Below are positions 2,849 through 32,000 of a DNA stretch of 32,000 bases, one piece after another. The stretch covers positions 56,381 through 88,380 of the forward strand of contig CAZMGY010000030.1 in NCBI GenBank assembly GCA_964565945.1, in the 5' to 3' direction. The notes beneath the pieces are model-generated. The model ran no database searches and had not been told where the DNA came from. It saw nothing but the letters and a program-made list of their open reading frames with translations. The DNA comes from an uncultured bacterium. GTDB lineage: Bacteria; GCA-001730085. Positions within the stretch are counted from its first letter, which is position 1. Every line of letters begins with the position of its first letter. Position numbers and translations under genes: made by a program.

Positions 2849-4683
2849 GACCCAGTCAACTCCTCTATTTTAGCGCAGATTTCCGCCACAGTGAATGGTC
2901 GTCCTTGGATTTTATTAAAACCAATAGCATCCACCAAATATTCGGCACGAATCATTTTGATTAATTGCCCAGTGTTTAATTCGGGCACAAGCACCGTTTT
3001 AAATTGTTTTAAAAAATCCTTAAGCTCATGAGGAAAAGGAAACAAATGGCGCAAGTGGATACTGCTCACCGATACATCTTGGCTTTTCATTTGTTCCACA
3101 GCAGTGGTAATGGTTCCATAAGTTCCCCCCCAGCCAATAACCAAAAGATCCCCCGACACCTCACCTAAAATATCAAGTGGTGCATAATCATTGGCCATTT
3201 TAAGAACTTTTCCTAATCTTAAATGTGTCATTTGTTCATGATTTTCAAAATCATAACTAACTGAACCTTTTTCATCTTTTTCGAGACCCCCGATGCGATG
3301 CTCCATGCCTGGCGTTCCAGGCAAAGCCAAACGACGCGCTAGGGTTTCGGGGTCACGCTGGTAAGGCACATATGCTTCACCAGGAACAGCCGTCATCACC
3401 TCATTCGGTTCAAAACAAGAGACATCAGGAATTTTCCAAGGCTCAGCGCCATTGGCAATAAATCCGTCCATTAGAATAATCACTGGAGTGTTGTACTTAA
3501 GGGCCAAACGAGACGCCTCAATAACCGTATCAAAACAATCTGCTGGAGATTTAGCTGCAATCACAGGCAAGGGTGAATCACCATTGCGTCCATACATATT
3601 CTGTAATAAATCGCTTTGCTCTGTTTTGGTTGGCAAACCTGTACTAGGCCCGCCACGTTGAACATCAATAATCAAAAGCGGCAACTCGGTGATCATAGCT
3701 AAATTTATAGCTTCGGATTTTAAACAAATTCCAGGACCACTGGTGGCTGTCACCCCAATTGATCCAGCAAAGGCCGCACCAATTGCCACACCAATACCAG
3801 CAATTTCATCCTCAGCTTGCACTGTTTTGATACCAAAGTTTTTATGCTTCGAGAGTTCGGCAATCACATCACTGGCTGGCGTAATCGGATAACCTCCAAA
3901 AACGATTTGTTTTTGGCTTAACTCCGCCACCGTAACTAAGCCCAAAGACAAGGCTTCGTTACCTGTGATTTTACGATAAATTCCGGGTTCCATGGGGGCT
4001 TTTCCCACATGATACCTAACCCCAATAATTTCGGCAGTTTCTCCGTAAAAATACCCCGTCTTAAGAACCTTAACATTGGCCTCTAAAACATCAGGTTTCT
4101 TAGCAAATTTTTTCTCCAACCACGCAATAGTGAGTTCCATAGGACGATCATACATCCAATACATAAGACCCAGAGCGAAAAAGTTTTTGCACAATTGTTT
4201 GGCCGAAACCTTCAAAGGACTTTCTTCGAGAGAATCTAAGGTGAGCTGTGTTATATCAAGGAGAATTAAATTATATTTATCTTGCAAAGCCTCGTCTTCC
4301 AAAGGATTGCTTTCATAACCCGCTTTGCGTAAGTTTTCTTTAGTGAACGTTCCAGTGTTAGCAATCAAAATGCCTTTGTCCAGCAAGTCAGGAAGATTCA
4401 CCTTGAGTGCCGCAGGATTCATCACCACCAATACATCAGGAGCATCCCCTGGTGTCATAATCTTGCGATTTCCAAAATGAATTTGAAACCCCGAAACGCC
4501 TGGCAATGTTCCTTGAGGCGCACGAATTTCAGCAGGAAAATCGGGTAAAGTACTCACATCATTTCCAGCAATAGCACTACTGTGGGTAAACTGCGTTCCC
4601 GTTAACTGCATCCCATCGCCAGAATCTCCAGCAAAACGAATAACAACCGAATCAGTCACTTCTATAGATTTGTGCACAGACAT
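2845..4683 (-). CDS. korA: 2-oxoglutarate/2-oxoacid:ferredoxin oxidoreductase alpha subunit (fused gamma+alpha domains)
   Basis: 612-aa ORF with ATG at 4683. An N-terminal gamma-like domain (RFAGDSGDGMQLTG, DVLVVMNPAAL) is followed by an alpha domain (GYPITPASD, GGPSTGLPTKTEQSDL). The architecture matches two-subunit KorAB enzymes. Confidence 0.85.
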   Translation of the reverse strand: MSVHKSIEVTDSVVIRFAGDSGDGMQLTGTQFTHSSAIAGNDVSTLPDFPAEIRAPQGTLPGVSGFQIHFGNRKIMTPGDAPDVLVVMNPAALKVNLPDLLDKGILIANTGTFTKENLRKAGYESNPLEDEALQDKYNLILLDITQLTLDSLEESPLKVSAKQLCKNFFALGLMYWMYDRPMELTIAWLEKKFAKKPDVLEANVKVLKTGYFYGETAEIIGVRYHVGKAPMEPGIYRKITGNEALSLGLVTVAELSQKQIVFGGYPITPASDVIAELSKHKNFGIKTVQAEDEIAGIGVAIGAAFAGSIGVTATSGPGICLKSEAINLAMITELPLLIIDVQRGGPSTGLPTKTEQSDLLQNMYGRNGDSPLPVIAAKSPADCFDTVIEASRLALKYNTPVIILMDGFIANGAEPWKIPDVSCFEPNEVMTAVPGEAYVPYQRDPETLARRLALPGTPGMEHRIGGLEKDEKGSVSYDFENHEQMTHLRLGKVLKMANDYAPLDILGEVSGDLLVIGWGGTYGTITTAVEQMKSQDVSVSSIHLRHLFPFPHELKDFLKQFKTVLVPELNTGQLIKMIRAEYLVDAIGFNKIQGRPFTVAEICAKIEELTGS

Positions 4684-4685
4684 AA

Positions 4686-5159
4686 TTACGCTCCAAACGG
4701 CTCTTTGGGCACATCACCCAAAAGAGGAGGTAAATTCAAAGTTTCTTCGGGGACATGTTCTGCAATAAAATCAATCAAAACACGTACCGAAAGTAGCCCT
4801 AAAATCTCACCCTTGTCACAGACAGGCAAATGCCGAAAGGGTTTCGATCCAAATAAATTCATTGCTTCGGTCACATCAAGTTCGGGATCAACCGTAAACA
4901 CATTTTGCGTCATAACATCACTGATAGTATTAGAGGATGGCAAGTCGGTTCCAATGTAAAGACGCATAAAATCGCGTTCGGTAACAATACCCACCCAAAA
5001 AGAATCTTGATTCAGAACAAGCAAACAACTTCGATTTCTATCTTGCATCAGTCGAATCGAAGCCTCAATCGTATCTGTATCTTGAACAATCAAAGGTTTT
5101 TGAAGTGGAAGATGTTTCACCTTCTCATGCCAGCAGGGGTGTAATTCTTCGTTTGACAT
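4686..5159 (-). CDS. stand-alone CBS-pair domain protein
   Basis: 157-aa ORF with ATG at 5159 whose stop lies 2 nt before the korA ATG. It has two CBS-like repeats (GIVTERDFMRLY; FRHLPVCDKGEILGLLSVRVLIDFI). The FRH(L/V)PV motif is shared with the KorB C-terminal extension. Confidence 0.8.
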   Translation of the reverse strand: MSNEELHPCWHEKVKHLPLQKPLIVQDTDTIEASIRLMQDRNRSCLLVLNQDSFWVGIVTERDFMRLYIGTDLPSSNTISDVMTQNVFTVDPELDVTEAMNLFGSKPFRHLPVCDKGEILGLLSVRVLIDFIAEHVPEETLNLPPLLGDVPKEPFGA

Positions 5160-8538: not shown

Positions 8539-9432
8539 TCACCACAGGCCTTTACGATTAGCCCACAATAGCCATTGCGGTAATTTCTCCAAAATCTCCT
8601 CAACCTGCTTAACTGTTTTGTGTTCTAGATTGTTAAGTGAATCCGTGTCCACAGCTTGTCTTTCGGATATACTCATCAAATCTAGAGGATCAACGGTATC
8701 AAAAGAATACTGGTGAACAAAATCTTGCCCCGAAAAAGGTGCCTCAAATTCTTTATAAACCAAAGCCTCCCAATCTCTCTCTTGCTGATGCCCCCAAGAT
8801 CTCACTTTATGCAACATTTGCTCTTTGGTGCGCACCCAACTCAAGTGATGCACCATAGGTTGACCATCCAAACCCAGCACCCGCTTCCATGTTTTTCTCC
8901 CATTGAGGGCATAGCGCTCCCTTTTCGAAAACACCTGCTTAGGCGAAATAGTGGTCTTTTTAATCCAAGTGCCCGCATATTCGGTTTGTTTAGCCCGATA
9001 ACAAATATCTCGAAAATACCAATAAGCTTCAAATGTTACAGTTCGCACAGAATTAAGAAACGAGGAGATAAACCATTCTTTTATCCGATCTGCATCCATA
9101 ATTTCATCATCGTCCAAAAAAAAGACACCCTCACATTCATCCAAAGCTAAGTACCCTAGCCACCGTCCCAAATTGATGCCAAAATGCGGCCCATAGCTCT
9201 TCGTCCACTGATCTGAATAAGGAAACATCAGCCACCGCACATCAGGGTAAAGACGTGCCAAATCAAGAAAATACGTTTCTGGTTCAGGTGTTCCATCCAG
9301 AAGATGATCACACACCACCACCACCACCTGATCACAGATCTTCAAAGTCTGATCAATACAGGGTCTTATAAAGTCACGCCCCAGACTACAATGATTGATC
9401 ACACATGCATGCTTAAGATTTGTCTGATTCAT
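8539..9432 (-). CDS. putative glycosyltransferase (GT17-like, DXD motif)
   Basis: 297-aa ORF with ATG at 9432. It has the segment VVVVVCDH...DGTPEP and the acidic motif FFLDDDEIM. The block HHLSWVRTKEQMLHKVRSWGHQQ resembles the GWHFSY...K..SFSH.E block I recall from bacterial GT17 (PF04724) proteins. The family assignment is from memory. Confidence 0.5.
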   Translation of the reverse strand: MNQTNLKHACVINHCSLGRDFIRPCIDQTLKICDQVVVVVCDHLLDGTPEPETYFLDLARLYPDVRWLMFPYSDQWTKSYGPHFGINLGRWLGYLALDECEGVFFLDDDEIMDADRIKEWFISSFLNSVRTVTFEAYWYFRDICYRAKQTEYAGTWIKKTTISPKQVFSKRERYALNGRKTWKRVLGLDGQPMVHHLSWVRTKEQMLHKVRSWGHQQERDWEALVYKEFEAPFSGQDFVHQYSFDTVDPLDLMSISERQAVDTDSLNNLEHKTVKQVEEILEKLPQWLLWANRKGLW

Positions 9433-9517: not shown

Positions 9518-10099
9518 TTAAAGAGTTTGAAAACTAACATCATCTAAGTAAAGAACACCATCTTTATCAGTCGCATTGATGTCATCAAATACAATAACAA
9601 ATTGTGCAACACTTCTCCAGTCAGTCAAACCACTGAACTTACGGAAAGGAACAACAATTTTTTTCCAGTCACTTGTCACACCTGTGACCAAATAACGTCC
9701 AACTTCTCCGTTAGAGCCTTTAAGCTCTACTTTGAACTGTGTTGTGTAACCTGTTTTTTTATCTCCAACTACATAGAACACTAGCGAGTTGTATTCTCTT
9801 AAATCAACATTGTTTAGATGCATCCAACAACCGTTGTAAGCCGGATTAGGTGAATCAACATCATAATCCAATTTGAGAGAGTATCCAGAGTCGCCATTGC
9901 GAATATCGCCATCGAAAGAATCATTACAGAACTGAGTTGTATCTTTCTCATCTTTGTCCCAGGTGCCGAAGTTTCCACCTAAAAAATTAGGCTTGGACAT
10001 ATCGTTAAAGTCATCCACTAACAACACATTAGCATGCGCTACTACCACCGACGTCAGAATTAGTCCTACCGAAGCTACTACCACTTTCATCATCTTCAT
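9518..10099 (-). CDS. secreted beta-rich protein with a CBM11/CIA30-like (galactose-binding-like jelly-roll) domain
   Basis: ATG at 10099 (MKMMKVVVASVGLILTSVVVAHA, a Sec-type signal) with AGGAG 9 nt upstream. The ORF-track N-terminus MCKKKERPK merely translates that SD region. The mature part carries LLVDDFND, SGYSLKLDY and DGVLYLDDVSF, paralogous to the N-terminal domain of the 494-aa protein at 10731-12215. Confidence 0.6.
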   Translation of the reverse strand: MKMMKVVVASVGLILTSVVVAHANVLLVDDFNDMSKPNFLGGNFGTWDKDEKDTTQFCNDSFDGDIRNGDSGYSLKLDYDVDSPNPAYNGCWMHLNNVDLREYNSLVFYVVGDKKTGYTTQFKVELKGSNGEVGRYLVTGVTSDWKKIVVPFRKFSGLTDWRSVAQFVIVFDDINATDKDGVLYLDDVSFQTL

Positions 10100-10173
10100 T
10101 TTTGGTCTCTCCTTTTTTTTACACAAAACGAATCAATCACCTTTTCCCTAAGTTCTTTGAGGCTCTAGGCCTC

Positions 10174-10632
10174 CTAATGTTTTCTATCGTCATCCGTTCC
10201 ATCTTGACCATCTCGACCCACCGAATACAAATCAAAATAACGACCATCAACCAGTGACGCATGTTTCCGATAACGAAACGGCTGTCCCCAGGCGTCTAAG
10301 ATGTTTCCAGCATCATTCACATCTCGGCCTTTTTTGAGCTCGATGTATGGCCCACGCCAACGAGATCCCAAAGAAGCAAGCCCCAGACCTTTCGTCCCGT
10401 GAACTAAGGCCCACAAAGTAAGCGAATCGGGATAAACACCCATATCCACTTTGTAAAGTTTAAGCGCCAAAGCCAGCGAGGCCAATTGAGCCTCCGTCTT
10501 AGCTTCAAACGCACGGTTACGAGAGGTTCGCAAGGACGGCAAAGCTATACTTGCCAAAATCACCATCACCGAAATGACTGTTAACACCTCTAGTAAGGTA
10601 AATCCTCGTCTACTCATCTCCCTGATCCCCAT
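10174..10632 (-). CDS. gspG: type II secretion major pseudopilin GspG
   Basis: Prepilin leader and methylation site MSRRG|FTLLEVLTVISVMVILASIALP. The C-terminus DAWGQPFRYR...FDLYSVGRDGQDGTDDD matches the GspG calcium-loop pattern. The start is either ATG 10632 or ATG 10617. Confidence 0.85.
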   Translation of the reverse strand: MGIREMSRRGFTLLEVLTVISVMVILASIALPSLRTSRNRAFEAKTEAQLASLALALKLYKVDMGVYPDSLTLWALVHGTKGLGLASLGSRWRGPYIELKKGRDVNDAGNILDAWGQPFRYRKHASLVDGRYFDLYSVGRDGQDGTDDDRKH

Positions 10633-10730: not shown

Positions 10731-12215
10731 TTATTGAATGCCATCCTGGACCTCCTGAATCTTTAACACCATTACCTTACGATGACTGTGGTCTCCCACA
10801 AACACCAAGGATTCATTATTCTTAATAATAACATCAATAAATTTTAATTGTCCCAGACGATCCAAGTGGCTTACGCCCAAATATTTCCAATTTTTATCAA
10901 ACACATAAATCCCCTTAGCTTTGGACGAAATCACCAAACAGCTTCCCGATATAGGATCAAAAGCACAATCCGAAGAAATAAAAAAGGCGCCTTTTTCATC
11001 GATGCATTTGGCTGAACTCACATATTTTCCATCAAGATCAAATTTATCAATCGAAGATGCAGCCTCATCCATAACATACATATAACCTTGGTGAATTTTG
11101 AGCCGCACCGGCTCCAAAAAGAAGCTAGCCTTTCCCTGCTTTTTCCAAAACAATTGGCCCGACTTACCATCGGATCTATATTTCCAAATCGTGTTGTCCG
11201 AAATATCGAGAACATAGACATAGCCTTCATCATCCACCGCAATATCTTTCAACTCACCAAAAGGCTTTCCATCTCCACGCCAAGTTAACAAGCCTTTTTG
11301 AGCAAAAGTCTCATCCACCACACCTTCGGTCGATAATTTTTGCAAACGTTTATTCACGCTATCGGCCACATAAAAAGCTGTCTTTTCGGGATTAAACGAA
11401 ATCGCCAAAGGTTCATTAAATTCTCCTAAACTTTGCCCTAAACGACCAATTTCTTGCACATAGTGTCCATTTTGATCGTACTTAAAGATAAATGAACCCA
11501 TTTTTTGAACTATAAACAAATTTCCTTGAACATCGCAAGCCAAATCGACCGCAGAAACAATAGGAATCCCCTCCATAAGATTCCCTACCTTCTCCTTACC
11601 CTCTTCCGACAAGTGTATTTGAGAGCTCACGTTATCTAAGTTTTTCTTGGACAGAGTAATATGATCTATATAAAGCGTTCCTTTAGCCTGAGCATCGTTG
11701 GGCGCAACAAAAAGAAAAAGGTTTTTAATATTGCTTTGATCTAACTTTAACTTAGAAAAATTAAATTCGAGATCATTCCACTGATCGGCATTCAAGGCTG
11801 TCTTAATTCCTACATTGGCTTGCTCACCCCGACGGTCTTCCATTTTGAGCAATAGTTTGACCGACCCAAACACACGTATACGTAACACATCGTAATCACT
11901 AAAATTGCACTTGGGATTAATCGAATCAAAATAAGCCCCCACCAATTGAAACGGAGCCGATTTCTCGTAATCCAGTTTCATTGAATACTTCCCTTTGTAA
12001 GCTTTTTTTTGATTAATGGTGTAAGTGTAAACTTTATCTTCATCCAAATGCCACCATCCCGTACTTGTCACAGGGCTCCATAAATTGGCATCTTCAAAAT
12101 CTTCAATCACAACCTCATAAGGGATCTTTGCCCCTAAGGCAACAGCCAAAAAGAGACTCCCTACAACACTATTGATAACTACGTTCACAGCTGAATTTTT
12201 CCCTTTGATACTCAA
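10731..12215 (-). CDS. secreted protein: N-terminal CBM11/CIA30-like jelly-roll domain plus C-terminal NHL-repeat beta-propeller
   Basis: 494-aa ORF with signal peptide MSIKGKNSAVNVVINSVVGSLFLAVALGA. The N-terminal domain carries VVIEDFEDA, GKYSMKLDY and GTLYIDHITL. The C-terminal half has repeated NHL-like units (LGEFNEPLAISFNPEKTAFYVADSVNKRLQKL, LKDIAVDDEGYVYVLDISDNTIWKY, and others). Confidence 0.7.
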   Translation of the reverse strand: MSIKGKNSAVNVVINSVVGSLFLAVALGAKIPYEVVIEDFEDANLWSPVTSTGWWHLDEDKVYTYTINQKKAYKGKYSMKLDYEKSAPFQLVGAYFDSINPKCNFSDYDVLRIRVFGSVKLLLKMEDRRGEQANVGIKTALNADQWNDLEFNFSKLKLDQSNIKNLFLFVAPNDAQAKGTLYIDHITLSKKNLDNVSSQIHLSEEGKEKVGNLMEGIPIVSAVDLACDVQGNLFIVQKMGSFIFKYDQNGHYVQEIGRLGQSLGEFNEPLAISFNPEKTAFYVADSVNKRLQKLSTEGVVDETFAQKGLLTWRGDGKPFGELKDIAVDDEGYVYVLDISDNTIWKYRSDGKSGQLFWKKQGKASFFLEPVRLKIHQGYMYVMDEAASSIDKFDLDGKYVSSAKCIDEKGAFFISSDCAFDPISGSCLVISSKAKGIYVFDKNWKYLGVSHLDRLGQLKFIDVIIKNNESLVFVGDHSHRKVMVLKIQEVQDGIQ

Positions 12216-15281: not shown

Positions 15282-16337
15282 CTACCTCGCAAACACAATC
15301 TTGCTTTTCACACCGTCCTTATCCTTACTTGGAGTCAACACTTTTCGTTTAAATTCTCGTTTGAATTCCTCAACAATCAGAGACAGATTATCTACAATTG
15401 TGCCTTGAGGCGGTTGATCAATAATAAAATTCAACTCCACCTGCCCCCGTTTTTCCATAAGATACGTTTGCATTTGTTTAAGTCTAACAGTTTGCCTTAA
15501 AAGTTCGACATCAACATCTTCGAGCTGAGACATCATCTGAACCCTTAACGAGTCTTTAAGCTTCTGAGTTAACATCGACATCGAGAAAAACCCTTTTAAA
15601 ATCTTGGAATTTTGCTTCGAATTCAAATAGGCATCCACTTGAGACAAGTCCAAATGATTTACTTTAAAGTGCCCCCAAAGCTTTTTTTCCGACAATATAA
15701 AAAAAGACAAATGAAAGTCCTTAACCAAATCATTTAAACCATAACCATAAGCTTCGACCCGAACTAAGGCATCGGTGTTTTCTAGATCAACTTGGCTAAT
15801 GCCAACATAATCCGCATGCAAACTGATATCAATAATACGATCATTCAACCTATCTTTCACATAGACTTGAAAATTCCTCATCTGCAACGAATCAAAATAG
15901 TCTCCCCTAAAAACCGAAGGTTGCTGCCACAAGCCAACAATATCGGTAAATAAGCCCGTTAGAAAGTCGGGAGAACGTTCGATGTTTTGTTTGCGCAAAT
16001 GTCTGTTATCAAATTCGAGTCGAACATCCCTGCACTCGATTCTCGAAAACTTGATACGCCTTTCCACAAAAAAGCTCCATAATGATAATTCGCTCCTAAC
16101 ATGATCAATCTCCAAAAGCACACTTTTTTCATTATTGAGTTTCAAGCTTTCAATACGAATAACACCAGGCAAAATCCCAAACTTAATTCGGTCAACATCT
16201 AAACTTATTTGAGTGTTATCATTCAAAAAAGCATACAACTCCTGAGTGATCCACTTCGCCATAGACACCCGAATTGCGATGGGAACACAAAGAACCAAAA
16301 TAAAACCTAAACTACATAAAACTGGAAAACGTTTCAT
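15282..16337 (-). CDS. single-pass membrane protein with AsmA-like N-terminal region
   Basis: 351-aa ORF. It has an N-terminal anchor MKRFPVLCSLGFILVLCVPIAI. This is followed by ISLDVDRIKFGILPGVIRIESLKLNN..., which resembles the AsmA/DUF748 pattern G.I.L.L.P.L.L..V.L.N. The rest is beta-rich. It is the last gene of the pseudopilin operon. Confidence 0.45.
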   Translation of the reverse strand: MKRFPVLCSLGFILVLCVPIAIRVSMAKWITQELYAFLNDNTQISLDVDRIKFGILPGVIRIESLKLNNEKSVLLEIDHVRSELSLWSFFVERRIKFSRIECRDVRLEFDNRHLRKQNIERSPDFLTGLFTDIVGLWQQPSVFRGDYFDSLQMRNFQVYVKDRLNDRIIDISLHADYVGISQVDLENTDALVRVEAYGYGLNDLVKDFHLSFFILSEKKLWGHFKVNHLDLSQVDAYLNSKQNSKILKGFFSMSMLTQKLKDSLRVQMMSQLEDVDVELLRQTVRLKQMQTYLMEKRGQVELNFIIDQPPQGTIVDNLSLIVEEFKREFKRKVLTPSKDKDGVKSKIVFAR

Positions 16338-16339
16338 GG

Positions 16340-17212
16340 TTAATTTTCATATCCTTCAGACCACGACAGAGGCGTAAAGTCTAGTAAGTCATAAGCCTTT
16401 TGAGATTTTAAGTGAACATTACCTATACGAGGCAAGTTCTCGGGGTCGTCATGACGCGAGGCTTTTATCAAATATTGAGAATCAAACCCATAATGTTGCG
16501 CAATTTTTTCACCCATTTCATACAAACTAACAGCCCTTGGCCCACCCAAATGATACAACCCTTGAACTTTTAAGTTCAACAAATGATGTAAGCCGCGTGC
16601 TAAACACACCGTATTTATTCCCGATCTCAACTCATCGTGAAACAGTGTCATCGGTTTGTTTTGCCCCAGCCTCTTCGCAATCAAGTCCACCGCCCCCTTA
16701 TACCCCTGTAAAGAAGGCCCCATCGGCAACCCAATACGCACAATACCATAAGATGGGCGCTTCTGCACCAAGTCTTCCGCCATAAGATACGTTTTCCCAA
16801 TCACACTTATGGGATCTGGGCTAATATTTTCACAGTAGCCCTCATCGGGCTGTCCAACTCCTGAATAAACTAAATCTGCACTTATATAAAAAATATAAGC
16901 CGACGGTGCCGCATCTAAAATCATTTGAGTACCTAAAACGTTTCTCTCGTAAGCCCTATCAGGACACTTCTCTCCCAAGTCTAAATCGCACATTCCGGCC
17001 GCATGAACAATCATTGTGGGATCTATATCTTCAAGAATCTTGCAAAACGTATCAGGGTCACTCATAGAACAAGGGTAAACATAAGAGGCAGAAAAATAAC
17101 AGGCACTTTTGGGAGGCACAATCCCAATCACTTGGCCGGGATAGCTCTGTTCTAGCAGTTGAAACAGAGGCCAACCATGCATGGAAGAAATACCTGTTAT
17201 AATAATTTTCAT
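16340..17212 (-). CDS. RmlD-like (dTDP-4-dehydrorhamnose reductase fold) extended-SDR protein, catalytic triad apparently substituted
   Basis: 290-aa ORF whose ATG overlaps the stop of the GspK-like gene (ATGA at 17209-17212). MKIIITGISSMHG, IVHAAG, SADLVYSG, ISVIGKTYLMAE and GLYHLGG align to RfbD/RmlD as I recall it (GKTGQVG, VNAAA, STDYVF, NVYGKTKLAGE, GLYHL). Confidence 0.7.
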   Translation of the reverse strand: MKIIITGISSMHGWPLFQLLEQSYPGQVIGIVPPKSACYFSASYVYPCSMSDPDTFCKILEDIDPTMIVHAAGMCDLDLGEKCPDRAYERNVLGTQMILDAAPSAYIFYISADLVYSGVGQPDEGYCENISPDPISVIGKTYLMAEDLVQKRPSYGIVRIGLPMGPSLQGYKGAVDLIAKRLGQNKPMTLFHDELRSGINTVCLARGLHHLLNLKVQGLYHLGGPRAVSLYEMGEKIAQHYGFDSQYLIKASRHDDPENLPRIGNVHLKSQKAYDLLDFTPLSWSEGYEN

Positions 17213-19116
17213 AAACGCCTCACTTGTTGGGCTAACACTTTAGGAAAGGGTTTGCTCTTAAGTTTACTTTGATTGAAGTCCAAAGCCACCTCTACATCGG
17301 CATTCAACTGATAACCTGTATTGTTGTAAACACCTGTAACTTGAACATGAAAAAAGTGGCTTCTCACATCAATCAGATCATAAAGATTCCAAAAAACCTG
17401 ATCCACCTTCTCATTCGATAACTTTTGTTTAAGGGGCAAAATAATATCATAGATATTCTGAAACCCCTTAACATCCTTTTGATGAGAGAAATGTTGTTTA
17501 CGGTAGGCCACAATATGTTCCGCCAGGGGACGATCTATTCCAGGCAGAGACGCCAATACAAAGGCTGAAGATGTATTAATATTGATACGACCCGCCTGAC
17601 GATGTTTAAAAGTTTGATTCACCCCATCAATAACGTCAAAGTAATCGTCCTGATGATGCTCATCTACAAAAAACAGCTGCTTCAAGATAATTAAATCTTC
17701 AATTTCATTAGAATCTAACACACCATTCTGATTGGCATCCTGAACGTCACTGGCTTTTACTTTCAAAAAACTCCAAGGCCCATCGCCTTTGTAGACATAA
17801 GGCAAAAAACCAAGAGGAGACCTACCTAAAGAAAGGTCTTTGCGTCGCACAAACATTCGTTGTTGATCGGCAAACACACTTGCTTCTAAGGCTTGACCAT
17901 AGTTCTCATTAAGAGCTCCAGGGGAAAATCCTTGACTGTAATTATCAGCATGAGCCGATCGAGGATCATCCTTAATCAAACTTTGATCTAAATCGACATC
18001 CAAATTTAAATCAAACACACTCACAAGATTATCTTTCACAAGACTCACCACACCGCGATTGATTTCGAAGTTGGGCACCTCGTGGATCACATCAACATTC
18101 ACATGATCCAGAAACTGCAAGCGTTTGGTATGATCGGTGATTAAAAGAAAAGAACGCGCTGCCAAAATTAAACTTGGTAAGTTGACTGATTCTCTTCCCG
18201 AAGCTTTGGATTCCCACTCTAAGCGATAACCTTCTAATTTGATCTCTTCGGAGTAAGGGTTAAAAATTTCAACAAACTCTCCTCCATGACTATGGGCAAA
18301 ACTGTACATACGTGCCGGATTGACAAAATTCGCGGTATGATAGCGAACTTCGTTGATCAAAGGACGCACTTCATCTCCATACAAAGTCAAACCCACACCC
18401 ATACCGATTTGAAAAAGGGACTCATCGCCATCGACATAATCAATCAAGTTTGCCAAAACCTGATAGGCCTCATCCTCATTGTCGAACAGCTTGACAAATT
18501 CTCTTTCATGATGGATCGTGATCGACTTATCTTGCAAACTCCATACGTTCAATTTGGGCAATCCCTGATCGGTGTAGTTCACTCGAGAACTTACCCAAGT
18601 AACATTTTTATTCAACACATTGAGCCAAGTTGCTTTATTATTAGTCACAAAGCGTCCCCACTCTTGCCTTATTTGAAAAGGAATTGATAATGCCATCCTA
18701 CGGTCAAAAATTTCTTGCTCCCAAGTCACAGGTCTATCAAAATCACCTTTCTTACGCATATAATCAAAAACATCTTGTGCATAAAGCCCCCATGGCGCTT
18801 GATTTACATTCATATAACTCGCTAAATCATCCACACGAACATGAAAAAGCCCTTCCTTGTCCCATTCAAACCAATCCTGATCATGCGACACAAGAGACAT
18901 CGGTTCATTCTCGAAATGATCCTTTATTTTTGACAAGGCCAACGCCATCCCCGATTCGGCATTCATTTTAGCTTTCAATCGATCTTCAACGGGGTTCCCA
19001 TACTCCGTTTGCAACGAAACAAACCGCACAAAAGTAATCCCAACACTCAAAAGAACCAACAAAAGCCCTAACACAAGAATAAGAGCCACCCCACGTTGGC
19101 CGTGAATCATCTTCAT
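17209..19116 (-). CDS. gspK: GspK-like minor pseudopilin, double-sized, with lamin-tail-domain-like insert and EF-hand loop
   Basis: N-terminus GQRGVALILVLGLLLVLLSVG has no Glu at +5, as in GspK. The C-terminus GRININTSSAFVLASLPGIDRPLAEHIVAYRK is the GspK helix-hairpin-helix pattern. The middle (residues about 251-375) reads LINEV...GGEFVEIFNPYSEEIKLEGYRLE...LPSLILAARSFLLI, which looks like an LTD. DANQNGVLDSNE (17704-17739) fits the EF-hand loop. Confidence 0.7.
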   Translation of the reverse strand: MKMIHGQRGVALILVLGLLLVLLSVGITFVRFVSLQTEYGNPVEDRLKAKMNAESGMALALSKIKDHFENEPMSLVSHDQDWFEWDKEGLFHVRVDDLASYMNVNQAPWGLYAQDVFDYMRKKGDFDRPVTWEQEIFDRRMALSIPFQIRQEWGRFVTNNKATWLNVLNKNVTWVSSRVNYTDQGLPKLNVWSLQDKSITIHHEREFVKLFDNEDEAYQVLANLIDYVDGDESLFQIGMGVGLTLYGDEVRPLINEVRYHTANFVNPARMYSFAHSHGGEFVEIFNPYSEEIKLEGYRLEWESKASGRESVNLPSLILAARSFLLITDHTKRLQFLDHVNVDVIHEVPNFEINRGVVSLVKDNLVSVFDLNLDVDLDQSLIKDDPRSAHADNYSQGFSPGALNENYGQALEASVFADQQRMFVRRKDLSLGRSPLGFLPYVYKGDGPWSFLKVKASDVQDANQNGVLDSNEIEDLIILKQLFFVDEHHQDDYFDVIDGVNQTFKHRQAGRININTSSAFVLASLPGIDRPLAEHIVAYRKQHFSHQKDVKGFQNIYDIILPLKQKLSNEKVDQVFWNLYDLIDVRSHFFHVQVTGVYNNTGYQLNADVEVALDFNQSKLKSKPFPKVLAQQVRRL

Positions 19117-19736
19117 AAATTAGGCCCTTTCAACTTGTGCAAATAGCGCTGCTTCTCTTGCCCGTCAAAATAATCAATCACCAAAGCAATTTCATTCAAA
19201 GGTCCAGGGGGCAAACTTTTTAAACCGTTAAGCATTATTTGCATTTGTGTCACTTGGGCACCATTTCTTAGATGATCGGTTAGATTTGATCGATTAAGAT
19301 AATCGTAATTTCTAAGGTCTTGCTCTGTTGGTTGAAAATGGACAGGTCGCAATTGTCTCTCAACCCGTCCTTCGAACAAACGATATTCGACATAATACAA
19401 ACCATCATCCAAAGGATGGGCTTTCTCGGGATCTACGGTGCGTGAAATCAAAAAAGCCAATCGTTCATCGGGCGTCAAACGTATACGATCATAACCTGGC
19501 AAAAAAGTCTTATTGATTAAGGAAGCATCCAAGTCCTCGGATAATTCTTGAAACAGCCAAGCTTGTTGTTCGTAGATCAATTGGCGATCGATTTTTTGTG
19601 TCACGGCGCGGTGTGTTTGTAGGTATATGTTGTAAGCAAAATAAAACAACAAAACCACAATCAATGTGACAATAATCATTTCCATAAGAGTGAAAGCTCG
19701 TTTAGATATAGCTTTCAACGGTATAAACATGTTCAT
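19113..19736 (-). CDS. minor pseudopilin (GspJ-like by position and size)
   Basis: Class-III signal ...KAISKRA|FTLMEMIIVTLIVVLLFYFAY, with Ala rather than Gly at -1 and Glu at +5. The ORF-track start at 19751 is TTG. ATGs occur at 19736 and 19730. The stop overlaps the gspK-like ATG (19113-19116). Confidence 0.6.
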   Translation of the reverse strand: MNMFIPLKAISKRAFTLMEMIIVTLIVVLLFYFAYNIYLQTHRAVTQKIDRQLIYEQQAWLFQELSEDLDASLINKTFLPGYDRIRLTPDERLAFLISRTVDPEKAHPLDDGLYYVEYRLFEGRVERQLRPVHFQPTEQDLRNYDYLNRSNLTDHLRNGAQVTQMQIMLNGLKSLPPGPLNEIALVIDYFDGQEKQRYLHKLKGPNL

Positions 19737-20148
19737 AAGAAGCTCTATCAATAAGTTTAACCTTTAACACTAATTCTCCTTGAACATCCTCAAAGGCTGC
19801 CTCATAATCAATTGCCATCAAGGGCTTCTCTTTAAAACCAACATCTAAAGGATCTAACACAAATAGCCCCTCCTGAACTAAAGAGTTATCGATAGCATAG
19901 TGCGCATGCTGCTTCCAAAATTGATCGGTAAAATACTCTTTTCCTTCTCGCACATAGGCATCACGAATCCCATTCCTTAAAGACTGAGCTATCATTACAA
20001 GATATACATCCTTAGATGTTCTTTGCAAAGACATCACGCCCTGAGGAAATAAGGGGAAAACAGCCATAACCCCCACAAGAAAAACGGTCATCGCCACGGT
20101 CACTTCTAGCAATGTAAACCCTTTAGAGTCTCGAAACAAATATTTCAT
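19702..20148 (-). CDS. minor pseudopilin (GspI-like by position and size)
   Basis: MKYLFRDSKG|FTLLEVTVAMTVFLVGVMAVFPL is a canonical prepilin cleavage/methylation motif. The protein is 148 aa. Confidence 0.6.
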   Translation of the reverse strand: MKYLFRDSKGFTLLEVTVAMTVFLVGVMAVFPLFPQGVMSLQRTSKDVYLVMIAQSLRNGIRDAYVREGKEYFTDQFWKQHAHYAIDNSLVQEGLFVLDPLDVGFKEKPLMAIDYEAAFEDVQGELVLKVKLIDRASYEHVYTVESYI

Positions 20149-20151
20149 GCA

Positions 20152-20754
20152 TTAGTCCTGAAGTTCAATTCGATTATTTTTAGCATCGATCAAAATTGAA
20201 GAGGGTTCGCCTTCAATCAAAATAGGCACTTTATCAACAGTACCTTTCAAAGGAAATATAATACGCCCAGATATAGATTTAAACCGAACCGCAGGTAATA
20301 TGGTAGAAAAGTAACTCAACGAAACATCTTTAATATCCACTTTAATCCTTTGTGTTTTTTGCGCTTGGTCATTATCGATGAATAAGTCTTGCTGACTTCG
20401 AAACATGGCATCTTGTGGTAACAAAAGCCACTCGCTATCCAAGTGAAAGCGACCTTGCTTTTCTTTAACAATCGCTAAGGCTCGTCCAGGAAGTTGATCT
20501 CTTCTTTGAAAATAAGCCGTCGCTTTCACAAAACGATCGTCATGAGAAGGAACAAAAACAACATAGTGGTCCTGAGAGCTCGTCTGAGCTTGCTTCTGTG
20601 CCATGTACAAAATAGTTTTCACCCAATTAATGGCATCGCTACCTTGACGTTTCGATTTATAATCAAAAAAACGTGGCAAAATAAAGCTGGAAAAGAGCCC
20701 CATAAAAAAAATCACCAAAAGAACTTCAATAAGGCTAACACCTTTGCGACTCAT
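20152..20754 (-). CDS. minor pseudopilin (GspH/FimU-like by position and size)
   Basis: MSRKG|VSLIEVLLVIFFMGLFSSFILP, with Glu at +5. The protein is 200 aa. The ATG overlaps the TPR gene stop (ATGA at 20751-20754). Confidence 0.6.
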   Translation of the reverse strand: MSRKGVSLIEVLLVIFFMGLFSSFILPRFFDYKSKRQGSDAINWVKTILYMAQKQAQTSSQDHYVVFVPSHDDRFVKATAYFQRRDQLPGRALAIVKEKQGRFHLDSEWLLLPQDAMFRSQQDLFIDNDQAQKTQRIKVDIKDVSLSYFSTILPAVRFKSISGRIIFPLKGTVDKVPILIEGEPSSILIDAKNNRIELQD

Positions 20755-22670
20755 AGATCCCTTCCCTTTCTTTTTTGACGAAGAACACCCTTCATTTCCT
20801 TAGCAATCGCAGTATACTTGGGATTCTTCATACTTACAATCTCATTGTATACGGTTTGAGCAGCATCATATTGAACAAGCTTTTCAAAACAGCGTGCCAC
20901 CCCCAATTTAGTTTTAAAATACATATCTTCCGTTTTGAATCGCGACATACGGGTCTGAACATTAATATAAATATTCAAGGCTTCTGTCCACAAAGATTGG
21001 TGAAACAAAACATCCGCCAACGCCAACATTGATGAAATAATAATAGGCCCTTCATGACCATACATGCTTTGCTTAAAATATTCCTCTGCCCGCATCCAAT
21101 CTTTCATTCCTCCATAAGCTTGACCAAGCAAATAAGCCATGTTTTGTTTAAGAATTAAAACATCCTCATCAAAAATCAAGGGTTCTAAAGTGTCAATCAC
21201 CCGGAGATAACGACCCTGTTGAATATAAATATCCATTTTACTCAAAAGGGCCTCGCGAAATACTTCATTATGGGGCTCAATAAAATCCAAATACTCCAGA
21301 GCTTTATTGCGTAAACCCTCATTTAAATAGATATGCGCTAACTGGTAATGGGCATCTCCGACCAAATCACTTTCGGGATAATGTTCGATAATTTGACCCA
21401 AAGACCCTTTTTTCTTGTCGTAATCACCCTTAAGCGCATAATAGTCCGCAATCCATAAAAGAACATCAGCAATAAGAGGGTCTTGTGGATACAACTTGAT
21501 CATTTGATCAAAAACCTGTATCCCCTCCTTAATTTTACCAAGACGAATATAAGACCAAGCTTGATAATAATAGACCCGAGATGACTTGCGTGGAAAAAGA
21601 TCCGCCACTGTTTTAAAAAGCTGAATAGCCATTTTGTAATTCGCTAAATTGTAATAGCTTAAGCCAAAAAAAACATAGGCTTCGGCCGTTAAAGAATCTT
21701 TTTGCGAATAGTCCATCACCTCCCAAATGGCAATTGATTCGGCATACTGCTTTTCATAAAAAAAAGACAAGGCTTTTTGGTGATCAATATCTTTTCTCTC
21801 TTCCGCACTCAGTTCAAAGATGTCCTGATAAACGGCTAAAGCCTGTCTCGCCTGAGAATAATCCTGTAATTTCATATAAATCTGGACTTTTTCATACAAA
21901 GCTCTGCGATACCAAATAGACGTTTTATCCACACCCTTCGTCATCTTTTCTGTAATCAGGAGAGTTTCTCGAAAACGTAACATTCCCATCAAGGCCTTCA
22001 CCTTACCATACAAAACAGCTTGCTTTTGATCTTGATTTAAAGGCAAACGAAGGGCTTGATTCATCCGATCCAAGCATGCATCATACTGATCCATATGAAA
22101 ATAGCCTAAACCCGAATAATACAACGCCTGATACATTTGAAAGTCCCATTTTTCTTGAATTGATTGCGACTCTCCTTTGATTTTAGTAAGAAAAAGCTCG
22201 TAAGCCCCCACAGCACCAAGGTAATTCTTAAGCCGATACAGCGCATCACCTAAAACTTTGGCCGATTCCAAACCCCAAAAACTTTGATCGTGGTGCTTAA
22301 GCACATACTTCATATGACCCACTGTGTTGATATCGTATCCTAACAAATAGTAACTCCTCCCCATAATTACATGAATACGAGGGACAAGAGGTGAATCTGG
22401 GTAACTCTCTAACAAAATTCCACTGGTTTCAATCGCTAAGGGGTAATTTTGTTTTTGAAAATAACCATCGGCTAAGAAAAAAAGAACCGCCTCACGTTTA
22501 CGTTCTCCCAAAGAGTGGCTTAAAAAAAGCTGCCCTTGCTTAATAAGATCCTCGTATTTGCGGTCTTCGTAAAGCTGGCACACATCGGAAAATGATGCGA
22601 CGTTTTGCGCAGAAAGATTCGTTACAAAGCTCAATACCCCTAGTAAATTAATGGTAATAATACTTTTCAC
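20751..22670 (-). CDS. exported TPR-repeat protein
   Basis: 639-aa ORF with a GTG start at 22670 and GAGGGAG about 12 nt upstream. It has the signal peptide (M)KSIITINLLGVLSFVTNLSAQ. It also has many TPR-like units (Y..A...Y..G.Y..A...F) along its length. Confidence 0.75.
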   Translation of the reverse strand: MKSIITINLLGVLSFVTNLSAQNVASFSDVCQLYEDRKYEDLIKQGQLFLSHSLGERKREAVLFFLADGYFQKQNYPLAIETSGILLESYPDSPLVPRIHVIMGRSYYLLGYDINTVGHMKYVLKHHDQSFWGLESAKVLGDALYRLKNYLGAVGAYELFLTKIKGESQSIQEKWDFQMYQALYYSGLGYFHMDQYDACLDRMNQALRLPLNQDQKQAVLYGKVKALMGMLRFRETLLITEKMTKGVDKTSIWYRRALYEKVQIYMKLQDYSQARQALAVYQDIFELSAEERKDIDHQKALSFFYEKQYAESIAIWEVMDYSQKDSLTAEAYVFFGLSYYNLANYKMAIQLFKTVADLFPRKSSRVYYYQAWSYIRLGKIKEGIQVFDQMIKLYPQDPLIADVLLWIADYYALKGDYDKKKGSLGQIIEHYPESDLVGDAHYQLAHIYLNEGLRNKALEYLDFIEPHNEVFREALLSKMDIYIQQGRYLRVIDTLEPLIFDEDVLILKQNMAYLLGQAYGGMKDWMRAEEYFKQSMYGHEGPIIISSMLALADVLFHQSLWTEALNIYINVQTRMSRFKTEDMYFKTKLGVARCFEKLVQYDAAQTVYNEIVSMKNPKYTAIAKEMKGVLRQKRKGRDL

Positions 22671-30056: not shown

Positions 30057-32000
30057 TTACGCTCGATATAAGACCTCGAGAGAATCACTAAAACTCTCCA
30101 ATAAATCACGCTGCGTTTCGGCCCAAAAATCAATATCTTCTCCTTCGGTTTGCAACAAAGAATCATAAATTTCAGGCAATGTCACAGTGTCCAAAAAGGC
30201 TATTAAAGTACGGTATTCATTCACCTTTTTCACCCCTTCTTGCTCAAGTTTATCAGCGTAAGCTTTCATCGCGTTCAAAGCCTTTGCCCACTCTTCTCGC
30301 GGTGTCGTAGCAATGGCGTAAAGCAAGCTGTGCATTTCTAAAACAATCGGTGATTGTTGAGCATAAAACGTTTGGAGTTTCGTATCGCCAGCGATCATAA
30401 GCTGCCACATCTCATTTCGCATCATGAAACGCATCAAAGCTCCAGGCAATTGAAAAACGCTAGGGTGCACTGTAATCTCATTTATAGTCTTTCCATAAAT
30501 ATTAGCTGGCGTATTTTGAGCCAACGAACTTTGTTTAGGATTAACCCGAACATGACCAACAAAGTCAGTCATACCCCAGTCCTCCAGGGTCCGCTGCGAA
30601 ACAGATGTCCCTCCTGAATAAACTTCTGTTCGAGGGAGAACTGGCATCAACATGAAACCTGAATTTTCACGTCCTCCCATTGCAGAATCCTTTTGAAGCA
30701 TATCCCATGGCGCCATCGATACTATCTCCTTAAATGCAAGGAGCGTACGCATACTATTTCTCATAGATTCAATGGCTAATAGTCCCAACTCCGATACCTC
30801 CCCTCTAACGCCCCATAGATCCTTATTTACAAAGATATCCAAAACCTGGTCCCATAACTCTGTCCAAACATTGTAAATACTGTGATCCCATATAACAATT
30901 CCGGCGGCATACCCTGGGAAATAGCTCTTAACCATAGTAGAAAACCTTACCACCATAGGACCTACCTCATTCAGCTCATGACCAACACTAATATCGCTCA
31001 AGGTATCTCCCAGAACTCCTATATTTTGCACCAAGCCATTCAAAAAACTATAGTATGTTAGCCATTCTTGACCTTGAAAGCGAATATCAAACTCGACGTG
31101 CTCTTTCATTTCCTGAAATAGCTGATGCATACTCTCAACTTGCTGATGCATAGCCTCAACTTGCTGACCTAAAGTCACCGTAGCATCAGAGATATTGTTA
31201 CTAGCTCTTTGAAAAATCCACATTTGCAAAGAGCCCTTAAATTCTTCCATTAAACGAACTATTTTCTCATTAGTATTGGGCAACACCTTATGACCTTTAA
31301 AAGCCATCGTCTCTTGCAGGGCTTTCCGGAACTCGTTGGGCTGAAGTACACATGAACTTAAAAGCGCTTCGTTGCTCACAATAATCTCCCACAACTCCTC
31401 CCATTCTGTCGTCCACTTCTCAAAAACATCTTGATCATAAACAGGCAGCACTCGGGCTTCCCTGGGCACAATACGGCATAGGGCGTCTAGCAACGAAGGT
31501 AGTATATCCTGAGATAACCCCCCCCTCAACAGACTTCCCAACAGAATCAACTCTTGCGTCAATTGGTTAAGAAACTTCTGATATTGCAACCACTCTTGGC
31601 CACGATTCTTCAAGTTTTCATTAACTTCCCCTCTCATCTTTTGAGCTATCTTTTTAATAGCTTCGGAACATTGACGTATTTGATCCAGAAGAGACGCCTC
31701 CTTTACGTCCTTCTCCTCGTAATCTAAAGCAGGGTTCTGAGAGACCTCAAAAATGTAGTTTTTTAAAACACCTTTAAAATTTTGGACCAAGCGATTTATT
31801 TGTTCATCATAGCCCTGTAACCCACTCCAAAGCTCACCCCATACAACCTTCCATTTCTTCTGAGCAGTTGGACTATTTAAGGGAAAACGAGCTAAAATAG
31901 TTTGGAATCCTTCAGAAGCTCTTCGCCATGAAGCATCGTCTCCTTGAACATCTTCGCTCCAACCCAGCATTGCTTTTATCAAAGCTTGTGACTTATCGGA
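30057..32000 (-). CDS. large hypothetical protein built from ~179-aa repeats (5' end probably outside the window)
   Basis: The ORF-track start at 31982 is TTG. The frame stays open upstream to position 32000 (...SDKSQA-LIKAMLGW), so the gene likely continues beyond the edge. I recognised no enzymatic motif. It contains an internal duplication and a 21-bp tandem repeat (see findings). Confidence 0.6.
   Translation of the reverse strand, partial: SDKSQALIKAMLGWSEDVQGDDASWRRASEGFQTILARFPLNSPTAQKKWKVVWGELWSGLQGYDEQINRLVQNFKGVLKNYIFEVSQNPALDYEEKDVKEASLLDQIRQCSEAIKKIAQKMRGEVNENLKNRGQEWLQYQKFLNQLTQELILLGSLLRGGLSQDILPSLLDALCRIVPREARVLPVYDQDVFEKWTTEWEELWEIIVSNEALLSSCVLQPNEFRKALQETMAFKGHKVLPNTNEKIVRLMEEFKGSLQMWIFQRASNNISDATVTLGQQVEAMHQQVESMHQLFQEMKEHVEFDIRFQGQEWLTYYSFLNGLVQNIGVLGDTLSDISVGHELNEVGPMVVRFSTMVKSYFPGYAAGIVIWDHSIYNVWTELWDQVLDIFVNKDLWGVRGEVSELGLLAIESMRNSMRTLLAFKEIVSMAPWDMLQKDSAMGGRENSGFMLMPVLPRTEVYSGGTSVSQRTLEDWGMTDFVGHVRVNPKQSSLAQNTPANIYGKTINEITVHPSVFQLPGALMRFMMRNEMWQLMIAGDTKLQTFYAQQSPIVLEMHSLLYAIATTPREEWAKALNAMKAYADKLEQEGVKKVNEYRTLIAFLDTVTLPEIYDSLLQTEGEDIDFWAETQRDLLESFSDSLEVLYRA
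31121..31166. repeat. 21-bp tandem repeat, 2.2 copies, in frame (QQVEAMH/QQVESMH)
   Basis: Plus-strand units are atgcatactctcaacttgctg (31125-31145) and atgcatagcctcaacttgctg (31146-31166), differing at 2 positions. A partial gctg precedes them at 31121-31124. Confidence 0.85.

Follow-up and report, generated by a model that had tools for sequence, protein, structure and literature searches.

What a GspK-type minor pilin gains from being twice the usual length is the question raised by one gene in the DNA analysed here, a window of 32,000 nucleotides (contig CAZMGY010000030.1 of assembly GCA_964565945.1, positions 56,381 to 88,380) from an uncultured bacterium of the GTDB lineage GCA-001730085. 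The gene lies at 17209..19116 on the minus strand, with an ATG start and 635 codons in the list of open reading frames (ORFs). An initial annotation, made from the letters alone, had described its product as a double-sized GspK-like protein with an insert resembling a lamin tail domain (LTD) and an EF-hand calcium loop, and had suggested that a cap and a calcium-regulated binding module were combined in one polypeptide. The observation was confirmed, the ORF and all quoted motifs being present at the residues and nucleotides given for them, and the interpretation was partly supported. By sequence comparison, the window protein is a small member of a large family of K-type pilins with an inserted LTD, not a one-off.

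Assignment of the 635-aa protein to the GspK/PilK family of tip pilins is supported by the H-I-J-K gene order, the lack of Glu+5, matches to GspK hidden Markov models (HMMs) and profiles, and Foldseek matches to 3ci0_K and 5vtm_X. The protein begins with MKMIHGQRG/VALILVLGLLLVL, with QRGVALILVLGLLLVL at residues 7-22, and in QRG/VALIL, as read from the sequence, position +5 is Leu. It thus has the hydrophobic alpha1 helix without Glu+5 by which K subunits are recognized, and Glu+5 is present in all three of the neighbouring H, I and J gene products. Absence of Glu+5 marks the apical K subunit, and together with a C-terminal strand in cis it marks the apical subunit of systems without PilY1 (PMC13533445). 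The NCBIfam model T2SS_GspK (NF037980) matched the protein with an E value of 7e-16 and 58.6 bits (equivalog cut-off 130, missed), its best stretch aligning residues 7-106 with profile positions 1-105, and pilin strands were modelled at residues 84-97.

The C-terminal end is equally GspK-like, as the initial annotation had stated. The ININT...YRK segment covers residues 511-540, where Pfam HHH_3 (residues 508-551, E 1.4e-7, 32 bits) passed its cut-off of 27 and Pfam T2SSK (PF03934; residues 511-558, E 7e-4, 20.3 bits) missed its cut-off of 24.2. The model ends in three strands (588-597, 600-609 and 626-634) that match the C-terminal strands of canonical GspKs in the alignment. When compared with solved structures, the family profile matched XcpX (5vtm_X, E 8.9e-9) and GspK (3ci0_K, E 7.5e-5), and also ComEA structures, while a single-sequence search against the Protein Data Bank (PDB) gave weak helix-hairpin-helix (HhH) matches only. 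Because the curated GspK and T2SSK cut-offs were missed, the protein was filed as a K-family homologue and not as a type II secretion system (T2SS) GspK equivalog. Two other identities were rejected: ComEA, whose curated models scored far too low (TIGR01259, 16.2 against a cut-off of 152.35 bits; TIGR00426, 18.2 against 53.1) and to which the single hairpin alone matches, and a PilY1/PilC tip adhesin, since no beta-propeller (IPR008707) was matched in Pfam/NCBIfam scans or seen in the model.

An exhaustive HMMER search over 1.84 billion representatives gave 181 matches, and a word-indexed search with the window protein and the alignment as queries returned only the protein itself and two unrelated LTD proteins. 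The alignment, called A1 here, contains 17 sequences of full-length homologues of 589-727 aa, with A1 homologues 21-38% identical to the window protein. An identical 635-aa protein is present on 15 assembled contigs from public sequencing runs.

LTDs have INE at the start, a G-E-[FY]-[IV]-E-[LI]-x-N-P motif and T-P-G towards the end, and the window protein carries this set. LINEVRYH is found at residues 253-260 (LINEV, 253-257), GGEFVEIFNPYSEEIKLEGYRLEWES at 278-303, which includes GGEFVEIFNP at 278-287, LPSLILAARSFLLITDH at 313-329, and SPG at 397-399. Within A1, E256, G279, E283, N286, P287 and D328 are invariant or nearly so, with E256, G279, N286 and P287 invariant; a DPR at 384-386 is conserved, and G509, N512, I513, N514 and T515 of the hairpin are invariant. 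Since the conserved DPR and the SPG motif lie beyond residue 375, the LTD ends near residue 400, so the insert placed at ~251-375 by the initial annotation has the proposed fold and a greater extent. Pfam LTD (PF00932) matched residues 254-331 of the window protein (E 1.3e-4, 22.8 bits) and missed its gathering cut-off of 34.3. In 14 of the 17 A1 members an LTD match was obtained (best E 9e-13), aligned homologues reached 45.6 bits, and those from loci L009 and L017 exceeded the gathering cut-off. A Pfam scan of the same members found T2SSK in 15/17 and HHH_3 in 16/17. Thus both Pfam matches named in the initial annotation, T2SSK and LTD, were recovered, although both are below cut-off in the window protein. 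Judged by single-sequence criteria, the LTD and GspK assignments are sub-threshold, while the sequence facts behind them are right and go beyond chance.

An AlphaFold2 model of the full protein, built on A1, had a mean predicted local distance difference test score (pLDDT) of 79.4 and a predicted template-modelling score of 0.77, and showed a beta-sandwich at residues 253-381 together with the hairpin helices and three closing strands. Foldseek comparison of this model with the PDB gave confident matches of two kinds only, the Ig-like tails of lamins A/C and B1, at the top of the list, and GspK/XcpX (3ci0_K, 5vtm_X and 9a1f_T). All confident matches had a probability of 1.0 and E values of about 1e-3 (1.5e-3 to 3e-3 for the GspK/XcpX structures). 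When residues 248-402 were modelled alone (pLDDT 76.7), the top 14 matches were all tails of lamin A/C, B1 or B2, with template-modelling scores (target) of 0.48-0.71 and root-mean-square deviations of 3.4-4.5 A. The insert is therefore modelled with the Ig-type fold that had been proposed for it. An LTD-only profile searched against PDB sequences found no lamin chain and one chance match to eIF5A (E 0.2); the link between bacterial and eukaryotic LTDs here comes from fold comparison, not from sequence alone.

The position of the LTD within the GspK scaffold was mapped with a MAFFT alignment of the family with GspK homologues of 291-334 aa from the same HMMER search. These short GspKs align through the N-terminal helix and the DExxKiNiN strand, through an L-x-D-W-x-D-x-D...G-A-E motif that corresponds to LIDYVDGDES...YGDE (~225-249) in the window protein, and further on through KNGP-x-x-S-x-x-EL, with which the alpha-domain starts, through the ININT hairpin and through the C-terminal strands, and they are gapped over two blocks, ~107-212 and ~250-450, the second being the LTD and its return linker. 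Because the short GspKs align on both sides and are gapped across the LTD, this alignment puts the domain exactly where the alpha-domain is entered, with the acidic D-[WY]-x-D-x-D...G-x-E motif immediately before it, the position at which the initial annotation had looked for it. The first block accounts for part of the doubled size. In the model, a helical block covers residues 113-228, with a pLDDT of 56-85 over residues 113-208.

The acidic motif at ~225-249, whose residues D226, D229 and G247 show at least 90% conservation across A1, is presumably the GspK calcium site, an assignment drawn from conservation and alignment. GspK holds two canonical calcium sites (PMC6211770). A second acidic motif, DDYFDVID at 490-497, is conserved in its D[YF][YF]D..D version in the eight nearest A1 sequences. 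It resembles the D-aromatic-x-D-x-D motif ahead of the LTD, a likeness that, on sequence, hints at an internal duplication of an acidic-motif-plus-hairpin unit or at a third calcium site.

The EF-hand loop of the initial annotation is well supported as a sequence pattern. Residues 460-472, DANQNGVLDSNEI, fit PROSITE PS00018 in full. In a protein of this composition, the chance expectation is 0.005 for PS00018 and 2e-4 for the stricter pattern used before, and a single match to the loop pattern occurs among the window's long ORF fragments, 12,202 residues in all. The three or four clusters nearest to the window protein keep all liganding positions, namely P0002/P0154 (DENNDGILQDEE), P0003/P0155 (DINSNGLFDANE) and P0007 (DSNHNGLLDDSE), and the loop is missing from P0004, P0006, P0008 and P0009 and from every more distant member. 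It is not a paired EF-hand: no EF-hand Pfam family matched the protein at E values up to 1, and the model (pLDDT 87-90 in this region) has a three-residue helix, a loop at 458-468 and a helix at 469-479 that exits from loop position 10, with no partner hand and thus no paired helix-loop-helix. Residues 460-471 are best called an EF-hand-like loop-helix and a predicted site.

Acidic loops recur elsewhere in the family. At least one DxDxDG or EF-type loop is present in 31 of the 41 representatives with the same architecture, at differing positions (33 of the occurrences precede the LTD, 11 fall between it and the hairpin, and nine lie in or after the hairpin), which makes the acidic calcium-type loops a recurrent yet mobile decoration. 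Such a pattern is more readily explained if the loops stabilise the structure of an extracytoplasmic protein than if they form a conserved regulatory switch. In four distant members (P0015, P0016, P0022 and P0068), thrombospondin-type-3-like DGIDNDGDGxIDE repeats are found at two sites, the N-terminal extra block and the stretch behind the hairpin (A1 columns ~240-290 and 850-870), and the window protein has them at neither.

How widespread the combination is was assessed with segment HMMs built from A1, by which the architecture (N-terminal pilin part, LTD, C-terminal hairpin and strands) was assigned to 41 of the 150 representatives among the matches listed, the window protein counted, with lengths of 589-1,529 aa. 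A scan of species-representative genomes gave about 20 matches spanning the acidic motif, the LTD and the hairpin, in Candidatus Sumerlaeota/BRC1, Omnitrophota, Ratteibacteria, TA06, UBP4 and unclassified metagenome-assembled genomes (MAGs). In the databases, relatives are named "hypothetical protein", "helix-hairpin-helix domain-containing protein", "competence ComEA-like..." or "DNA uptake protein ComE-like", and their precomputed Pfam strings read LTD, HHH_3 and T2SSK. No source naming or describing the architecture was found, including in a full-text literature search for the lamin tail domain with pseudopilins, the T2SS or type IV pili. The GspK-plus-LTD architecture is machine-detectable yet undescribed.

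The database names raise the idea that the protein sits at the tip of a DNA-uptake (competence) pilus, where the LTD and the ComEA-like hairpin would capture extracellular DNA. HHH_3 is the strongest Pfam match and the family profile matches ComEA structures, as noted above; large inserts are known in K-type pilins of competence pili (PMC13533445), and LTDs are present in extracellular nucleases such as ExeM, whose activity in vitro drops when the LTD is removed (PMC6085458, PMC8289736). Against this, the hairpin is an ordinary motif of the GspK alpha-domain that non-competence T2SSs also have, the curated ComEA models are far from their cut-offs (16-18 bits against 53-152), and the LTD segment is acidic in 16 of the 17 A1 members (net charge -2 to -22, isoelectric point (pI) 4.1-5.4). 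The LTD of the window protein has a net charge of -9 and a pI of 5.1, and the whole protein a pI of 5.4. A DNA-binding role for the domain was down-weighted on account of this acidity, and we regard a competence tip as quite improbable. The names "ComEA-like" and "DNA uptake protein" in JGI/NCBI records, which are based on the hairpin match alone, probably mislead metabolic or competence inference from MAGs.

In its operon the K gene comes last, after three other minor-pilin genes in the order H-I-J-K, with gene ends that overlap or adjoin, the stop of the GspJ-like gene overlapping the ATG of the K gene. The closest genome match, locus L006 of "PVC group bacterium (ex Bugula neritina AB1)", shares the order PanC-PanD-AspDH-TPR-H-I-J-K at 36-63% identity (36-47% for the TPR-H-I-J-K part), with the tetratricopeptide repeat (TPR) protein in the same place and 47% identical. 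On a TIGR02521 match of only E 5.6e-4, this TPR protein may be a pilotin or a PilF/PilW-like accessory factor. Downstream of the K gene, an RmlD-like short-chain dehydrogenase/reductase gene (16340-17212, minus; RmlD_sub_bind E 1.5e-29) overlaps its stop by 4 nt and is followed by the gene for a 351-aa membrane protein (15282-16337, minus) with weak similarity to YhdP/DUF748 and to Leptospira-type GspN. Both were ruled out as members of the cluster, being missing there in L006, where a PNP_UDP_1 gene directly follows the K gene. A GspG-type gene lies 7 kb downstream of the K gene. On one side it has the gene for a CBM11-like protein (9518-10126) and on the other that for an NHL/beta-propeller protein of 494 aa (10731-12215), all on the minus strand, the latter with partial similarity to ScyF-type PEP-CTERM proteins.

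Such a gene set could also serve the periplasmic pseudopilus of a T2SS, with the protein as its cap and the LTD facing the secretin vestibule, where it would help in engaging or pushing secreted substrates, or in gating the secretin, instead of being a surface adhesin. Among curated models, the best matches are to T2SS proteins, GspK for the protein and GspG for the nearby major pilin, the latter at 81.2 bits just below its cut-off, the H-I-J-K order is typical of gsp operons, and neither PilT nor PilY1 was found in the window. However, GspC, GspD, GspE, GspF, GspL and GspM are absent from the 32 kb as well, and members of 1,000-1,500 aa would be hard to fit into a secretin vestibule. Distant homologues of the same architecture, moreover, adjoin bona fide PilT, which T2SSs lack (PMC7248040). 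Taken together, we consider a T2SS cap rather unlikely.

These PilT genes belong to loci L009 and L017, whose homologues pass the Pfam cut-offs for LTD, T2SSK (33.3 and 35.4 bits) and HHH_3. In both operons the order is PilB/GspE, PilT, PilB/GspE, PilC/GspF, pilins and then the LTD-bearing K gene, and the PilT protein scored 467 bits on TIGR01420 (cut-off 319). The retraction ATPase indicates a surface, type IVa-like, retractile pilus in these lineages. The two operons (L009, 94-17453; L017, 28-17653) each hold two PilB/GspE-type ATPases and one PilT. PMT_2 glycosyltransferase genes follow on the opposite strand in both, with a GT87 gene too in L009, and a link to pilin or envelope glycosylation is possible.

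Given these domains and partners, we lean somewhat towards a built-in tip module, in which the LTD of an apical K minor pilin would contact a ligand at the end of a type IV filament while calcium rigidifies the junctions. K subunits cap the type IV filament, and in systems without PilC/PilY1 the K subunit gives the terminal beta-strand in cis, often with large inserts or adhesin domains (PMC13533445). The tip-module reading is favoured because the cis strand is present, no PilY1 gene adjoins the K gene, and the LTD sits at the apex-forming alpha-domain. In this scheme, the K-type pilin would be produced from one operon with minor pilins of the H, I and J types, and its N-terminal helix without Glu+5 and its pilin beta-sheet, with the C-terminal strand in cis, would build it into the tip or initiation complex. 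The acidic LTD of ~150 residues would then point to the distal end of the filament, as expected from its insertion where ordinary GspKs begin the alpha-domain, and might bind a surface, a glycan, a secreted protein or a host protein. Calcium would act mainly by stiffening the junctions, at the conserved site D-Y-x-D-x-D and at residues 460-471, where the clade-specific EF-type loop lies, and one polypeptide would do what PilY1/PilC, CpaL or the grafted modules of modular pilins do elsewhere.

Several points weigh against a calcium-linked tip module. The window protein misses the curated cut-offs of NCBIfam GspK, Pfam T2SSK and Pfam LTD alike. Pfam/NCBIfam scans of the 32 kb window found no ATPase, platform protein or secretin, and with a GspG-like major pilin the machine could be a periplasmic T2SS pseudopilus and not a surface pilus. 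How the LTD would be turned with respect to the filament axis is deduced from topology only. Most members of the family are without the EF loop, which is thus not essential to family function, and since canonical GspKs already carry structural calcium sites (PMC6211770) and the loop is clade-specific, the calcium regulation proposed in the initial annotation is set back. Finally, the bacterial LTD is a domain without known function (PMC6085458).

This last point could also mean that the insert has no ligand, and serves as a bulky structural cap ensuring tip placement or as a timer of tip-complex folding. The GspK alpha-domain has been proposed as a mere cap confining the complex to the tip (PMC7248040), and large inserts of K homologues have been proposed to time tip assembly (PMC13533445). 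Yet the family-specific surface motifs INE, GEFIELYNP, DPR and TPG are kept in the LTD across phyla, in proteins only 22-38% identical overall to the window protein, which suggests more than bulk, and additional modules, as is typical of adhesins, are present in other members, which reach 1,529 aa; we think an inert insert improbable. Beyond the tip module itself, it is conceivable, if doubtful, that in several uncultured phyla (Sumerlaeota, Omnitrophota, Ratteibacteria, UBP4 and a PVC lineage) a K-type pilin has replaced PilY1, with the LTD as a calcium-dependent adhesin or sensor on a retractile pilus.

Compared with GspK/XcpX (3CI0 chain K and 5VTM chain X), the window protein shares the prepilin-like N-terminus that lacks Glu+5, the pilin fold broken by an alpha-domain that carries the ININT hairpin, the acidic D-aromatic-x-D-x-D...G-x-E motif before that domain, the C-terminal strand in cis and the last place in an H-I-J-K operon. 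It differs by its double length, by the ~150-aa LTD at the alpha-domain entry, by a helical block of ~105 aa before the acidic motif and by the EF-type loop after the LTD, and some of its relatives, unlike GspK/XcpX, lie in PilT-containing operons. In PilY1, pilus dynamics are under the control of an EF-hand-like calcium site, whereas the window protein is without a beta-propeller and its calcium role is only predicted. Entry IPR001322, which we take to be the lamin tail domain, is of interest in a published survey of modular pilins. In that survey (Dataset S1, Pelicic lab), six proteins combine the pilin motif with IPR001322, one more has an extra domain, and the list holds no GspK (IPR005628) plus IPR001322 architecture (PMC8179133). 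Grafting functional modules onto pilins is an established principle, and the S. sanguinis PilB/PilC resemble the window protein in bearing a functional module for display at the filament tip (PMC8179133), but there the module follows, at the C-terminus, a small pilin bearing the IPR012902 motif, whereas here it is set inside a K-type pilin, with the calcium-site motif on one side and the alpha-domain on the other. Caulobacter CpaL/TadG, Thermus ComZ and V. cholerae competence PilX (PMC13533445) likewise are apical subunits with a terminal beta-strand and a large extra domain, although their inserts, which are not LTDs, come after the beta-sheet and before the C-terminal donor strand. With bacterial LTD proteins, such as the nucleases ExeM/Xds and multi-LTD surface proteins, the window protein shares the PF00932 family, the conserved motifs and an extracytoplasmic setting, but none of these is a pilin: they are hydrolases, either secreted or anchored in the membrane, or arrays of LTDs in tandem.

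Both the binding targets of type IV filaments and the timing of their assembly are decided by tip complexes, and tip function in lineages without PilY1 is a current question (PMC13533445). An LTD at a fixed site in the GspK scaffold is a new solution that recurs in candidate phyla, and the family offers a tractable setting for bacterial LTD function. If the LTD is indeed a calcium-dependent tip adhesin or sensor, this would be the first defined cellular role for a bacterial LTD, a prokaryotic relative of the lamin Ig-fold.

Table 1 Features of the K protein and of the pilin-related genes in the window (residues of the 635-aa protein; nucleotide positions of the window)
Feature	Residues	Positions	Strand	Evidence
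K-family (GspK/PilK-type) minor pilin with inserted modules, 635 aa		17209..19116	minus	ORF list, NCBIfam, AlphaFold2 model, Foldseek
Prepilin-like leader (QRG/VALIL, without Glu+5), long alpha1 helix 8-70 and first pilin beta-strands	7-106	18799..19098	minus	NF037980 best stretch; model
Extra block, largely helical, not present in GspKs of 300-330 aa	~107-212	18481..18798	minus	MAFFT gap in all canonical-size homologues
Acidic helix and loop LIDYVDGDES...YGDE	213-250	18367..18480	minus	Aligned to D-W-x-D-x-D...G-A-E of canonical GspKs
LTD beta-sandwich insert	~252-400	~17917-18363	minus	Pfam LTD, homologue matches, Foldseek of domain model
EF-hand-type 12-residue loop DANQNGVLDSNE, then helix 469-479	460-471	17704..17739	minus	PS00018 match
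Second acidic motif DDYFDVID, D-aromatic-x-D-x-x-D	490-497	17626..17649	minus	Just ahead of ININT hairpin
GRININTSS... helix-hairpin-helix of GspK alpha-domain	506-560	17437..17601	minus	HHH_3 E 1.4e-7, T2SSK E 7e-4
Closing pilin beta-strands, including C-terminal strand in cis	588-634	17215..17355	minus	Model and alignment with canonical GspKs
GspJ/PilW-like minor pilin, 212 aa, A/FTLME		19113..19751	minus	N_methyl and prepilin-domain matches; best weak match ComG/GspJ group
GspI/PilV-like minor pilin, 148 aa, G/FTLLE		19702..20148	minus	N_methyl E 4.5e-7; PilV and GspI models best weak matches
GspH-like minor pilin, 200 aa, G/VSLIE		20152..20754	minus	GspH best NCBIfam match E 1.8e-5, below cut-off
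TPR protein, 639 aa, stop/start-overlapped with gspH-like gene		20751..22670	minus	Multiple TPR Pfam families
GspG-type major (pseudo)pilin		10174..10632	minus	Pfam T2SSG E 4.8e-16; TIGR01710 81.2 bits, cut-off 88.85

Elsewhere in the window, the minus strand carries almost all of the long ORFs, and the three plus-strand ORFs of at least 120 aa sit inside minus-strand genes. The GC skew is between -0.15 and -0.28 across the whole window, a strongly negative value that is expected if the window is co-oriented with replication on one replichore. Scans of the window for tRNAs and Rfam families gave no match, and two ORFs on the minus strand (30057-31982, 641 aa, and 8539-9432, 297 aa) had no Pfam/NCBIfam match at E <= 0.001. 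The region 1265-5159 (minus) encodes subunits of a 2-oxoacid:ferredoxin oxidoreductase, including a 527-aa thiamine pyrophosphate-binding subunit fused to a CBS domain, and a gene for a stand-alone CBS-pair protein of 157 aa adjoins them.

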